Positions 1 through 5,186 of a DNA stretch of 64,000 nt are shown here, in pieces (position 1 is the first letter of the stretch; the number at the start of each line of letters is the position of its first letter). The translations under genes and the position numbers were made by a program. Location of the stretch: positions 64,001 to 128,000 of the forward strand of contig JAHLWP010000005.1 in NCBI GenBank assembly GCA_019057865.1, written 5' to 3'. Source of the DNA: Promethearchaeota archaeon. Its GTDB lineage: Archaea; Asgardarchaeota; Lokiarchaeia; Sigyniarchaeales; SOKP01. Below the pieces are notes generated by a model, which ran no database searches, was not told the origin of the DNA, and was given only the letters and a program-made list of their open reading frames with translations.

Positions 1-265
1 CTAGAAATACATTTTTTTTAGTGAATATTTTTTCAGCGCCCCAGTCTTTATTTGAAAAGAATTTTTCCATAAAAGATCTTCCCAGAGTTTTTCCTACCCA
101 AGTCAATATATCATCCGCATTTGTACCAGCAAATTCTGTGAATTCGATCAAATCAATAGGTCTTAACATTAACAACCTCACATCTTTCTTTTTTTCGCCG
201 AAAAACAGCTGTCCTAATTTCTCTTCAATCATTATTTGTAATTCTTTTTTCAATATTTTTGACAT
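1..265 (-). CDS. V4R/TRAPP-Bet3-like domain protein, N-terminal part (runs off the window start; absent from ORF track)
   Basis: Manual translation from ATG at 265: MSKILKKELQIMIEEKLGQLFFGEKKKDVRLLMLRPIDLIEFTEFAGTNADDILTWVGKTLGRSFMEKFFSNKDWGAEKIFTKKNVFL..., open to base 1. The R-hydrophobic strand followed by the IL-x2-G-x3-G helix is typical of the V4R/Bet3 fold. Confidence 0.6.
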   Translation of the reverse strand, partial: MSKILKKELQIMIEEKLGQLFFGEKKKDVRLLMLRPIDLIEFTEFAGTNADDILTWVGKTLGRSFMEKFFSNKDWGAEKIFTKKNVFL

Positions 266-390
266 TACTTTTCCCTAATTAAGTATTTCATAAAGAATAT
301 TAAGAGATTATATAATAGAAATTTAAGTGTCTAGATATTTAAATTTAATGTTTAAATTAATTGAAATCTAAAATTAAAATATTAGGATTA

Positions 391-1446
391 TTAAGAAGCG
401 ACCAAGTTAAAAATATTTTGGATTACAGCATCGATATTGTATTTTGTCTTTACTGATGTGAAAAGCAATGCCCAATCTCTATTATTAATATTTTTAAAGT
501 TAAAAAAATCAAATAATTCTTCTTTTAATTTCTCTAGTTGATTTTCCCTGCTTTTTTCTGAAGATTTAATTAAATCTGTTTTATTTCCCACTATTAGTAA
601 AGGAATACCGGACAAATCATCTCTATTCACAATATTCCAGAATTCTTTTTTTGATTCTTCAAATCGTATTTGGTTAGCGATATCGATCATAAATACAATA
701 ATATTTGAGTCTTGTAAGCCAATCAACCATTTTTTTCGAAAATTTTGTTGACCTGGCATATCCCAAAAAGCCAGCACCCCTTTTTCTTGTTTTTCAATAT
801 ATTCAATATTGAATTTTCGTGTTGGAGCAAAGAAATTATCATTGAATTCACCTGTTTTTATTCTTCTTACAAGGGATGTCTTGCCAACTTCATCAATTCC
901 AAATAAAAAGACTTTAATAAATAACTCTTGCTGATAATTATAGACGATTTTAGGAGGTTTTTCGATAATTTCATCCCCATATCTTCGAATATCAATGAAC
1001 ATCGAAATTAGCAAATTTTCTATTTCAATTTCATCATCAAAAGAATATACTGTTCCATTATTTAATAATTCACTCAATAATTCTTCAAAAATTTCTTTAT
1101 AATCATAAGGATTATCTTCTTTATCAAAAATTAAACCTATAATAATTTTTCCGTTTATACAAGAGGTATATATATTTAAATCATTAATAATTTGTGCAAC
1201 TGGCTTATCAATTTTATAATGATTTGATTTTTTGTTTAAGTCTAGGTTAGAGATCGATAAATATTTATCTTTTTTATCCTTGTTATTTAGATTTGCCTGA
1301 TCATGACCAGTAATAATCAAATTAACAAGATTTTTGTCATTGATGTTTATAATATCATTTGGATAGCTATAGATATTAAGATCTTTTAAGTCTTGAAATT
1401 TCTTCCCTTTAAATAGAAAAATGTTATGTAGCAATGAAATTTCCAA
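391..1446 (-). CDS. Arf-like small GTPase with a ~170-aa N-terminal domain (possibly longin/uDENN-like)
   Basis: G1 GIDEVGKT, G2 APTRKFN, G3 WDMPGQ, G4 NKTD, G5 TSVK. The N-terminal domain call is tentative. TTG start. Confidence 0.85.
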   Translation of the reverse strand: MEISLLHNIFLFKGKKFQDLKDLNIYSYPNDIININDKNLVNLIITGHDQANLNNKDKKDKYLSISNLDLNKKSNHYKIDKPVAQIINDLNIYTSCINGKIIIGLIFDKEDNPYDYKEIFEELLSELLNNGTVYSFDDEIEIENLLISMFIDIRRYGDEIIEKPPKIVYNYQQELFIKVFLFGIDEVGKTSLVRRIKTGEFNDNFFAPTRKFNIEYIEKQEKGVLAFWDMPGQQNFRKKWLIGLQDSNIIVFMIDIANQIRFEESKKEFWNIVNRDDLSGIPLLIVGNKTDLIKSSEKSRENQLEKLKEELFDFFNFKNINNRDWALLFTSVKTKYNIDAVIQNIFNLVAS

Positions 1447-1617
1447 AAATTCTTAATTCCTATAAGTTTGAGAATAAAGGTTAATTAAAAAAAGTTTGGA
1501 ATCTTGCCTAATTTATAACTTTTAAAGTTTTTGGTTTAATAATTCTAGGAAGATGATTTAACTCCTTTAAAAAACCTTATTAATAGATGAATAAGAAAAA
1601 TTCAATTTAGAATTCTC

Positions 1618-3012
1618 CTATTCTTTGCTATCTTCTTCAACATCTGGAGTTTCTTGTTTATTATCAGAAGTTTTTGTTTCTGATGGAGCCTCAGATTGCG
1701 GAGTTGATTTTGATGCTACAGGTGTTCCACAGATAGGACATTTTGACCAACCTGGTCTCAAGCCGTAACCACATTTTGAGCATTCTTGCATATCCTCATC
1801 TGGTTTCCATTCTGGTATATCTAAACCACCTTGTCTTTTACTAGCAAATTCTTGTAATTCATCTTCTGTCCAAAACTCCATACCCTCAGGTAAACTGGAA
1901 CCTCTCTCTTGGACAAATTTGGTTATTTCTTCTTCCGACCAAATGGGCATATCAGGTTGAGTAGCCCTTCTTTTTTGTGCTTCTTCTGCTAACTCCTCAG
2001 CTGTCCATGCTTTAAGCTCTTGACCTCCCGGAGTTCTCACTACACCTGGTTGTTGAGGAGAAATTTGGCTAGGAGCCTGGGTACCCACAACACCTCCACT
2101 AATAGAAGGTGCATTACAACACTCAGCAGAAAACTTTAAAAGTGCTTCAAAACATTTTGAGAATTTATTTAGATCCTTCCCTTCATCAGTAACTAACATT
2201 AATGTAGTTTTATCAGCTGGCTGAGGAATAGCAATACCACACATGGCAATATCTGATTTAAGTCGCCCTGATTCTATACCAGAAGTGAGTTTTTCCATTG
2301 AGTTCGTTAAATCCTCATCTTTCATCAAAAAATCACAGATTGGATCTCCGTGTCTCTGGAAACTCTCATGGTATTTAGCTAGTTGAGTTCTTGTTATCGT
2401 TGAGTTAAGAGATCTAATAATAGCATCTACATACGGAAAAATTTGAGACTTAGGACCTTTTTGAGATCCTTCTAGCTCATAACCACCTAAATCAAGAGCT
2501 CCCGTAATAGGAGCGAATAGAGATGTTTCATTCTTCATTTTACCATAAATTATTGGTCTTGAAATAACACATTTGATTTCTCCGTAATAGGCAATAGCGT
2601 CATCAAAAAATTGAACTTTTCCATCATAGATAATTCGTGGAACACTTCGGAAAATTACATCAGCCCAAGGCATTTCTTTTACTGGAATTATTACATAACA
2701 TGTTTTATCAATTAAATCGCGCAATTTTTTAATGAAATCTTTTAACTCTTTTTTAATATTCTGATATTCTTCACTAATTAATTCTTCTTCTGCATTTTTT
2801 TCAAATTCTTTAAATTTTTCTTCATTTTTCTTGAGGTTTCCCCCAAATGATTTAACTTCTCCAATAGTATTACCTTGTAAAATAGATGTGGCATTTTCAA
2901 TAATTTTTTTCTGAAAATCGGATAACTCAGCCTCAGAACTTGAAATAAGGTAATCGTTGATATTGAATTGGATTTTATTAGCAAAGACTTCAAACAATTT
3001 CTTTTCTGACAA
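1618..3012 (-). CDS. Hypothetical protein with three W[TS]xEE[LI]-like helical repeats and a C-terminal zinc ribbon
   Basis: 464-aa ORF. Repeats WTAEEL, WSEEEI, WTEDEL, then WKPDED and CSKC-x9-CPIC, then an acidic S/T-rich tail. Confidence 0.75.
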   Translation of the reverse strand: MSEKKLFEVFANKIQFNINDYLISSSEAELSDFQKKIIENATSILQGNTIGEVKSFGGNLKKNEEKFKEFEKNAEEELISEEYQNIKKELKDFIKKLRDLIDKTCYVIIPVKEMPWADVIFRSVPRIIYDGKVQFFDDAIAYYGEIKCVISRPIIYGKMKNETSLFAPITGALDLGGYELEGSQKGPKSQIFPYVDAIIRSLNSTITRTQLAKYHESFQRHGDPICDFLMKDEDLTNSMEKLTSGIESGRLKSDIAMCGIAIPQPADKTTLMLVTDEGKDLNKFSKCFEALLKFSAECCNAPSISGGVVGTQAPSQISPQQPGVVRTPGGQELKAWTAEELAEEAQKRRATQPDMPIWSEEEITKFVQERGSSLPEGMEFWTEDELQEFASKRQGGLDIPEWKPDEDMQECSKCGYGLRPGWSKCPICGTPVASKSTPQSEAPSETKTSDNKQETPDVEEDSKE

Positions 3013-3221: not shown

Positions 3222-4430
3222 CTAAGGTAAGGGAAACATTAGATAACAAATTTTAGTCCAATTTAGTCCATGGTATTCAATTAAACCCATCATTTTATTA
3301 TACGCATCAACAGAATAATATTGACAAATGGGGGCAGGACTTCCATTTTCAATAACCGCAAAATGTACATGAGCAGATGAATTCACATTGTAAAACCTAG
3401 CAATGTCCCAACCTAATTGCACCCATTCGCCCAACTCAACATGCATCATACTTGCTTGTTGTTGATAATCTAAATAACTATCAGACCAAATCTCAAATAA
3501 ATATTCAGTTGCAATAGTTATACTGTAATTTATTACTAATCGTAAGGCATATCTATCTTGTCTTCCTGTCCCTCTATCTATAAATTCAATTTTGGTAACC
3601 TGACCTGGTGCAGCTGCTAACACTTTTGAACTATCTTTAAAATAGAAATCAAATCCTAAGTGTATTTCATTCCATGGGCAAAGAACTGTATTAGAATATC
3701 CCTTTACTACCTTTGAAATTGAACCATTAAATTCAAAACTAGCTACCATATAATCTAAGGGAGTATTTTCATCATAACATAAATAAGGCCAATCTGGATG
3801 ATAAATATGAACTAATCCCATCATCCTATTATAGGCTGCTGGAGAATAATATCTGTCAAGACGAGTGCGAACATCATCTTCTATTACATCAAAATGTATA
3901 TGAGCACCTTCTCCAATTTCCAAAAATAGCGCGATTTCTTGCCCAACCTCGACCCAATCTCCTATACTAACATTTATTAAGCTTTTTTGATTTTCATGAT
4001 CACTACTTTCATTAGTCCAAGGTTCAAAATTGTAATTTACATATACGCTATGATTAAATCTTATACTAACCTCAACCATATATCTATTTTCTGTAGCTTC
4101 ACCCCAATCTTTTTCTCGAATAATGCTTACTTGCCCAGGAGCTGCTGCAAGGACTTTTGAGTCGTTAATTAAAGCAAAATCAAACCCTTCATGAGCTCTT
4201 GCCCATGGGCAACTGTTTGTCGTAGACCATGCATCATTAACCGTATAAATATATGATTCGTTTTCAAAAATGACATCCATATAATCCAGATGACCCCAAT
4301 CATATCGTTCTCCAGGATCAAAAAAGTTCTCTTCCCAAGGTGGATTTTCCAGAATTCGAGGTACAATAATAATTCCTGCAATAATTACTACAGCAACTAT
4401 AATAAGTGAAATTATACCTTTTTTTTTCAT
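3222..4430 (-). CDS. Membrane-anchored/secreted protein with two tandem M23 (LytM-like) metallopeptidase domains
   Basis: N-terminal MKKK plus hydrophobic helix. Two copies of HxGxD (HEGFD, HLGFD), VLAAAPGQV, VxxG[DE]WVxxG and HxH (AHIHF, AHVHF), 177 aa apart. Confidence 0.85.
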   Translation of the reverse strand: MKKKGIISLIIVAVVIIAGIIIVPRILENPPWEENFFDPGERYDWGHLDYMDVIFENESYIYTVNDAWSTTNSCPWARAHEGFDFALINDSKVLAAAPGQVSIIREKDWGEATENRYMVEVSIRFNHSVYVNYNFEPWTNESSDHENQKSLINVSIGDWVEVGQEIALFLEIGEGAHIHFDVIEDDVRTRLDRYYSPAAYNRMMGLVHIYHPDWPYLCYDENTPLDYMVASFEFNGSISKVVKGYSNTVLCPWNEIHLGFDFYFKDSSKVLAAAPGQVTKIEFIDRGTGRQDRYALRLVINYSITIATEYLFEIWSDSYLDYQQQASMMHVELGEWVQLGWDIARFYNVNSSAHVHFAVIENGSPAPICQYYSVDAYNKMMGLIEYHGLNWTKICYLMFPLP

Positions 4431-4895: not shown

Positions 4896-5186
4896 TTGAA
4901 GATTGTCACAGTCAATATTCCGGATTCATTTTTAGATCCAATTAAAAAATTAGTAGGGGAGAATGGCCTGTATCCCTCTAGGTCAGAATTAATTAGAGTT
5001 GCAGTTAGAGAATTTTTATTAAAAGAGCTAGCCGTAGCTAATAGGATGGCTAAGTATAAAGAAAGTGAAATTAAAGATTTTGATGAAAAAAATTACGTGA
5101 GAGTACCTATTGAGACGACTGATGAAAATGATGAACCTGTACGGGAGTTCAAAACGTACAAAATCGTAAGGCGTTTAGAATATTAG
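4896..5186 (+). CDS. Ribbon-helix-helix (CopG/Arc/MetJ) transcriptional regulator
   Basis: MKIVTVNIP...GLYPSRSELIRVAVREFL is a typical RHH signature. Confidence 0.9.
   Translation: MKIVTVNIPDSFLDPIKKLVGENGLYPSRSELIRVAVREFLLKELAVANRMAKYKESEIKDFDEKNYVRVPIETTDENDEPVREFKTYKIVRRLEY

Follow-up and report, generated by a model that had tools for sequence, protein, structure and literature searches.

Several known systems come close to the locus examined here. The catalytic site of eukaryotic TRAPP needs a longin heterodimer (Bet5/Trs23), Bet3 and Trs31, and it acts in trans on a Rab (PMC10152722). Fusions of a longin domain with Arf-like or Rag-like small GTPases have already been published from Lokiarchaeia (Dey 2016, PMC4917890; Tran 2024, PMC10933270; Zhu 2025, PMC11914678), and these papers assign the fusions no partner. 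V4R sensors such as MopR and PoxR carry a domain which in MopR holds a zinc site made of C155, E178, C181 and C189 (bioRxiv 10.1101/2023.07.11.548514), and the Asgard TRAPP/V4R proteins are considered likely to bind ligands (Tran 2024, PMC10933270). In a 64,000-nucleotide stretch of a Promethearchaeota archaeon genome (contig JAHLWP010000005.1, positions 64,001 to 128,000; "the window" below) we find a longin-fused Arf/Arl-like small GTPase gene (gene B) whose fixed neighbor, throughout most of the family to which this archaeon belongs, is a gene for a stand-alone V4R protein (gene C). The parts are of known kinds and B has the same longin-GTPase architecture as the published proteins; of its pairing with a V4R gene we found no description in the literature searched.

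The window corresponds to G000:C71:64001-128000, where G000 is the source genome, and positions given below are window positions unless a genome (G) or locus (L) label precedes them. "Host family" denotes the Loki-type Asgard family of the source genome and "sister families" the others in the same order, including that of MK-D1 (G105); homologues of the genes carry the labels Promethearchaeota/Lokiarchaeota. Three co-oriented minus-strand genes occupy the left end, all found where a sequence-only reading of the window had placed them: gene A (1618-3012, 464 amino acids, TTG start, no family assigned), gene B (391-1446, 351 amino acids, single copy in the source genome) and gene C, which starts with an ATG at 265 as that reading had proposed, has its first 88 codons in the window (1-265) and runs off the left edge. 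Recovery of the full C open reading frame from the genome gave 198 amino acids (G000:C71:63669-64265, equivalent to L001:13669-14265), extending 332 bases to the left of the window. By the annotated starts the A-B gap is 171 bp and the AT-rich B-C spacer 125 bp (266-390); the probable start of B is a second TTG at 1434, equivalent to the start used by most homologues, which would give a protein of 347 amino acids and an A-B gap of 183 bp. The three gene products are all acidic, and none has a transmembrane segment. One terminator-like hairpin lies 3' of gene C, and a sigma-70 promoter scan gave 21 sites, 20.5 being expected by chance, with a model that does not cover archaeal promoters.

The GTPase domain of B (391-915, minus) gives a Pfam Arf match over residues 174-346 (E 2e-28), and its five G motifs are intact, as had been claimed: G1 GIDEVGKT (900-877), the G2 region PTRKFN (within 828-808), G3 WDMPGQ (765-748), G4 NKTD (585-574) and G5 TSVK (459-448), all on the minus strand. 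The motifs are conserved across 59 homologues, among which the Asp at position 3 of G1 is invariant and position 2 is mostly Ile, compared with the Leu-Asp of the strict-Arf criterion, while the third position of G3 is Pro in all 57 homologues in which this motif was matched (51 of them read WDMPGQ). Among solved structures the sequence comes closest to Arl8, Arl3 and the Asgard Arf 8oul/8ouk, and in these matches and its G1 Asp gene B is like the Arf family and the Asgard ArfR/AArf proteins. It is unlike them at two Arf-defining features, listed after Zhu 2025 (PMC11914678): strict Arfs have Gly at the third G3 position (DxGG), where B reads DMPG, and they begin with an amphipathic helix, whereas the N-terminus of B is a longin domain that opens with a beta strand. 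Because of these two differences we call B Arf-like and not a strict Arf, and the label "Arf family member" was rejected.

About 172 residues precede the Arf match, in agreement with the N-terminal domain of roughly 170 residues described earlier, and a Pfam search of this region found nothing. A model folded from a 40-sequence alignment (predicted local distance difference test, pLDDT, 77.9) gives the domain (970-1431, minus) the DSSP element order beta-beta-alpha-beta-beta-beta-alpha-alpha, which is the longin topology, interrupted at residues about 58-73 by an insert that is disordered and variable. The top nine rows of its VIA matches are all longin-containing complexes or domains with Z of 8.0-9.0; they include GATOR1 chain 8fw5_B (Z 9.0), the Loki longin 8yqg from a roadblock-longin protein (Z 9.0, root-mean-square deviation [rmsd] 3.3, 127 residues aligned), BLOC-3 (Z 8.9) and MON1A-CCZ1 (Z 8.7). 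Foldseek alone returned no match at E<=0.001 for either this model or that of the gene A core. As judged from the predicted model and its structural matches, the N-terminal domain of B is a longin fold, as the sequence-only reading had suspected. The A-B-C block contains one longin only, and the source genome yielded no second gene closely related to it; if it pairs with another longin, the partner may be a further copy of itself or a more distant relative. The MK-D1 orthologue of B is WP_147662730.1.

Gene C is, by its sequence, a V4R protein with a MopR-type zinc site. The helix ILTWVGKTLG, from which a V4R/Bet3 relationship had been suggested, is present at residues 53-62 (window 109-80). 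The match of C to Pfam V4R (PF02830; E 1.3e-5, 25.6 bits) is under the 31-bit cut-off; many close homologues match PF02830, the ten best Atlas family matches are all V4R, and the C profile weakly matches MJ1460, Bet3/TRAPPC3 and Thor-TRAPPC3 (E 0.014-0.2, with the Bet3/TRAPPC3 chains at 0.05-0.2). The superfamily assignment is therefore correct. Residues C133, E155, C158 and C166, encoded to the left of the window, are conserved in 64-66 of 68 homologues and match the Cys-Glu-Cys-Cys spacing of MopR. Gene C shares this spacing and the fold with the V4R sensors (PF02830; MopR, PoxR, MJ1460 and "MKD1 PoxR"), but unlike the MopR/PoxR type it stands alone, with no ATPase or DNA-binding module, and it has an acidic C-terminal tail. 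The tail is conserved in most host-family genera and is the one feature of C that recalls Bet3.

The fold of C thus appears Bet3-related, yet C is evidently not Bet3. Its match to Pfam TRAPP (PF04051) has E 0.14, and in a search of the phylum that family was found in none of 25 host-family genomes and in all 26 of the Thorarchaeota family f11. In a tree of 43 sequences MKD1-TRAPPC3 (WP_147663132.1) and the Thor proteins cluster with support of 99/93 and C falls outside, nearest to its paralogue D with weak support; D (G000:C26:8118-8606, L072) is also its closest paralogue by HHalign (98%) and is the more conserved of the two. Thor-TRAPPC3 (7yh3) and MKD1-TRAPPC3 share the superfamily with C and have weak profile similarity to it (HHalign 63-67%), but they form a separate clade. 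The zinc site of Thor-TRAPPC3 consists of four cysteines (PMC10933270), and the MK-D1 orthologue of C (WP_147661795.1, whose adjoining gene we infer to be WP_147661794.1, "MKD1 PoxR") is a different gene from MKD1-TRAPPC3. We rejected the label "Bet3 orthologue" for C, a protein that the Thor/MK-D1 TRAPPC3 clade excludes and whose TRAPP Pfam match is sub-threshold.

Gene order was compared in a sample of 121 genomes searched with gene C, the B longin domain and the A core. Of the host-family genomes, 86 of 92 have B next to C and 83 of 89 have A next to B, and both adjacencies persist in genus g3 as well, where identity is about 40%. Three of the six B-C exceptions are probable contig breaks and the other three (G052, G056 and G084) share one relocation; in genus g7, three genomes have A and B apart. 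The B-C spacer was 53-199 bp long in the 49 loci examined. On the other side of C, cdhA is no more than 5 kb away in 68 of the 69 cases in which both are on one contig, but only 43 of the 69 have the two genes directly side by side; the A-B-C block is thus more resistant to insertion than the C-cdhA flank, which hints at co-regulation. In the three relocated cases (L068, L069 and L071) C adjoins a gene for a 970-amino-acid protein, in two of them it is also next to a gene for a 172-amino-acid protein, its zinc site is kept, and A, B and cdhA remain together.

Outside the host family the arrangement is different: the adjacency, which the sequence-only reading wanted checked across Lokiarchaeia, stands for the host family and fails in the sister families. 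In MK-D1 a distance of 1.03 Mb separates the orthologues of B and C and no gene A was found, and at none of the eight B loci from sister families did B have a V4R neighbor. Instead, each of the five sister-family genomes that yielded C has its C and D orthologues in tandem, head-to-tail, with an overlap or a gap of at most about 20 bp, the best matches of the two V4R genes in the source genome being C and D respectively. This tandem pair lies in the neighborhood of pilus-like and rpl3 genes, a location that D has kept in the source genome, and it adjoins a roadblock/299-amino-acid/MglA-like operon or precedes a roadblock-Rab gene. In a phylum sample of 151 genomes the B longin was found only in the host order, and elsewhere C has only weak, V4R-level matches. 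In the simplest history, drawn without the aid of a rooted species tree, C-D would be the earlier arrangement and B-C a derived one. The B-C pair probably formed late, within the host family, and is probably not ancestral to eukaryotic TRAPP.

The D locus of the source genome (L072) contains prepilin peptidase, T2SS (type II secretion system)/pilus ATPase and rpl3/rpl4 genes. In the sister family that includes MK-D1 (L052, L056 and L058) the operon beside C-D encodes a roadblock protein of 331-361 amino acids, a 299-amino-acid protein with no Pfam match and an MglA-like GTPase; in the source genome it is separate, at G000:C77:35686-38282. A further V4R gene, E, belongs to a third locus (G000:C9:59648-61665, L144; relatives L145-L173) comprising a Rab-like GTPase gene, a 99-amino-acid thioredoxin (CAPC), gene E and usually a second Rab-like gene. 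The GTPase-thioredoxin-V4R order is kept at 29 of 30 such loci in two families, MK-D1 included, the remaining locus being cut by a contig end, and its conservation goes deeper than that of the B-C pair.

What might the B-C pair do? We favor, tentatively and at somewhat less than an even chance, the view that C, likely together with D, is a ligand or redox sensor that acts on B, the whole forming a family-specific sensor-and-switch unit. B would be a soluble GTP/GDP switch, having neither a membrane anchor nor the Arf amphipathic helix, and its fused longin domain would be a docking platform for regulators. C would belong to the zinc-stabilized MopR/PoxR type of V4R proteins; it would dimerize, probably with the separately encoded D, sense a small ligand or thiol state and, by way of some contact with B, bias the nucleotide state or output of the GTPase. 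In an ancestor of the host family B and C would have been moved from separate loci to a position behind gene A, and then kept there as a co-regulated and perhaps co-transcribed block. V4R genes are found beside small GTPase genes repeatedly (C with B, C-D with MglA-like or roadblock-Rab genes, and E with Rab-like genes), and 3.5% of the non-GTPase genes of the source genome, which has 66 small GTPases by our count, adjoin such a gene (2.0% co-oriented); this recurrence favors a general sensor-to-switch wiring.

Several observations weigh against the sensor-and-switch view. The adjacency counts come from related genomes and therefore lack independence, and the GalT, ribbon-helix-helix, cdhA, Rag-like and VWA-RING genes around the block are also syntenic in the host family; because the whole region is syntenic, inheritance alone accounts for much of the adjacency. 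The median B-C spacer, 162 bp, is longer than the 89-bp genome median for co-oriented gaps. The lineage of G052, G056 and G084 has split C from B with both genes intact, in the sister families the C orthologues no longer have the zinc site, and profile searches of genus g13, which has B, found neither C nor D, even in a genome assembled as one contig and 93% complete.

The strongest alternative is that B and C are neighbors with no direct functional link. B would then be self-contained and dimerize through its longin domain, C would work with D in a role belonging to their earlier locus, near the type IV pilus/T2SS-like genes and rpl3, and the adjacency would be a rearrangement frozen in a family whose genomes keep their gene order stable. 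We regard this as a substantial possibility, although one well below even. It accords with the unlinked state of A, B and C in MK-D1 and other sister-family genomes, with the presence of B where C, or A, was not found, with a synteny broad enough to take in unrelated genes, with the retention of D at the pilus/rpl3 locus and with the finding that MK-D1 GTPase genes are generally not in operons with longin or TRAPPC3 genes (PMC10933270). It accounts less well for a B-C junction that resists insertion more than the C-cdhA junction does, and for V4R genes adjoining small GTPases above background.

Two further alternatives would have C bind the B longin. In one of these, which we think unlikely, a C-D V4R heterodimer would sit on the longin with TRAPP-like geometry and would be a ligand- or redox-gated exchange factor, assembled from the TRAPP-core folds independently of TRAPP. 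A complex prediction for C and D with B as partner scored 0.01 against a mark of 0.32, and we used it neither for nor against binding.

The other, rather unlikely in our estimation, is the TRAPP-type guanine-nucleotide exchange factor (GEF) that the sequence-only reading had proposed as a minimal GEF-GTPase unit. Spelled out here, the model would have C be Bet3-like and pack on the B longin as Bet3 does on Bet5/Trs23, with the C tail prying open the nucleotide pocket. The basis of that proposal has stood, since longin and V4R/Bet3-superfamily folds do occur together near a small GTPase, as in the core of TRAPP (Bet3/TRAPPC3, Trs31, Trs33; Bet5, Trs23). It gains something from the weak matches of the C profile to Bet3/TRAPPC3 chains, from the acidic tail, given that the C-terminus of Bet3 opens the Ypt1 pocket (PMC10152722), from the parallel that a C-D heterodimer would make with TRAPPC3-C6, from a constrained tree grouping C with TRAPPC3-like proteins that was not rejected (approximately unbiased test, p-AU 0.37) and from a reported Heimdall longin-TRAPPC3 fusion (Tran 2024, PMC10933270). 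The weak part is a TRAPP-type GEF made of two genes. TRAPP needs a longin heterodimer, Bet3 and Trs31 and works on a Rab in trans, whereas B has one longin, fused in cis to a GTPase that is Arf/Arl-like rather than Rab, and B and C do not supply the rest. C lies below the TRAPP Pfam level and outside the TRAPPC3 clade and has a MopR-type zinc site, and the B longin is closer to the NPRL2/Mon1/BLOC-3 types (VIA Z 8.7-9.0) than to TRAPP longins (6.6-7.0). The acidic tail of C is missing in genus g3 even though the adjacency is kept there, and the unit is lineage-restricted, with B found only in the host order and C represented outside it only by weak matches. The observations of the sequence-only reading are therefore confirmed and its interpretation partly supported.

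Gene A is, as had been recognized, a repeat and zinc-ribbon protein, composed in order of a core, a low-complexity linker, three repeats, the ribbon and an acidic tail. The core (2107-3012, minus; residues about 1-300) is globular with a model pLDDT of 88.5. The three W[ST]xE[ED] repeats (1855-2007, minus; at residues 336, 358 and 381) are kept in orthologues from all three families, and the zinc ribbon CSKC...CPIC (1729-1782, minus; residues 411-428) has the form CxxC-x10-CxxC and matches Pfam Zn_Ribbon_1 (E 5e-5). Relatives of A number 42 among 1.84 billion representatives, and distant A homologues had no B-like or C-like neighbors that we could see on contigs that are short. Pfam gave no accepted match to the core and Atlas searches with A nothing usable; HBL, 14-3-3 and TipAS Pfam matches were rejected as weak, helical and confined to single members. 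The top VIA match of the core is chain 4 of the multipass translocon (Z 9.5, rmsd 6.6, 190 residues aligned), followed by chain 4 of the SND3 translocon, TtfA and T3SS (type III secretion system)-chaperone-type folds (Z 9.2, 8.1 and 7.9). Chain 4 would be CCDC47 in both translocons, because of its size and because CCDC47 is common to the two complexes. With an rmsd to CCDC47/TtfA above 6 Å at 7-10% identity, and with no sequence-level support found, the weak resemblance of the modeled core to these proteins is a lead only. The single transmembrane anchor of the CCDC47 type is missing (maximum 19-residue hydropathy 0.89), and a literature search found no paper tying CCDC47 to Asgard archaea or TtfA.

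The SRP (signal recognition particle) receptor pairs a longin with the Arf-like SR-beta. By analogy A might be the real partner of B, a CCDC47/T3SS-chaperone-like scaffold whose repeats and ribbon bind partners and whose switch is B, but in spite of the A-B adjacency and the translocon match we consider this unlikely, given the poor fit of the core, the lack of an anchor, the separation of A from B in g7 and the failure to find A in MK-D1, which has B.

Other genes surround the block. Between gene A and the ribbon-helix-helix gene the window contains a gene (3222-4430, minus) whose 402-amino-acid product carries a hydrophobic segment in its N-terminal part and matches Peptidase_M23 repeatedly; this gene was not at the equivalent position in the relatives' loci examined. 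The ribbon-helix-helix regulator (4896-5186, plus; 96 amino acids) is divergent from A, is near A even in sister-family genomes (L054, L059 and L067) and is a candidate regulator of A. Adjoining the ribbon-helix-helix gene in another locus (L033:2726-3604) is a gene of about 293 amino acids with, by eye, a longin/uDENN-like start and no Pfam match; it has equivalents in L032, L034-L037, L039, L042, L046-L048 and L050, and so in most host-family genera, and is missing there in the window. Downstream of C, past cdhA, are a Rag-like GTPase with an N-terminal helix-hairpin-helix region (L001:9438-10646, plus) and a VWA-RING protein (L001:8031-9233, minus), the two lying 3-6 kb from C.

Asgard genomes have dozens of small GTPases each and, to our knowledge, a native regulator has been matched to none of them. 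The MK-D1 gene layout hinders the matching of GTPases to regulators (Tran 2024, PMC10933270), and the regulators of Asgard Arfs remain unidentified (Zhu 2025, PMC11914678). The locus described here provides small, soluble candidate regulators for B, namely C, the paralogue D that is encoded elsewhere, and A. Since the pairing does not extend beyond one Loki family, B-C would inform by analogy and not as a direct ancestor of TRAPP; if the sensor-and-switch view is true, it would show V4R and longin folds controlling a GTPase in the absence of an endomembrane system.

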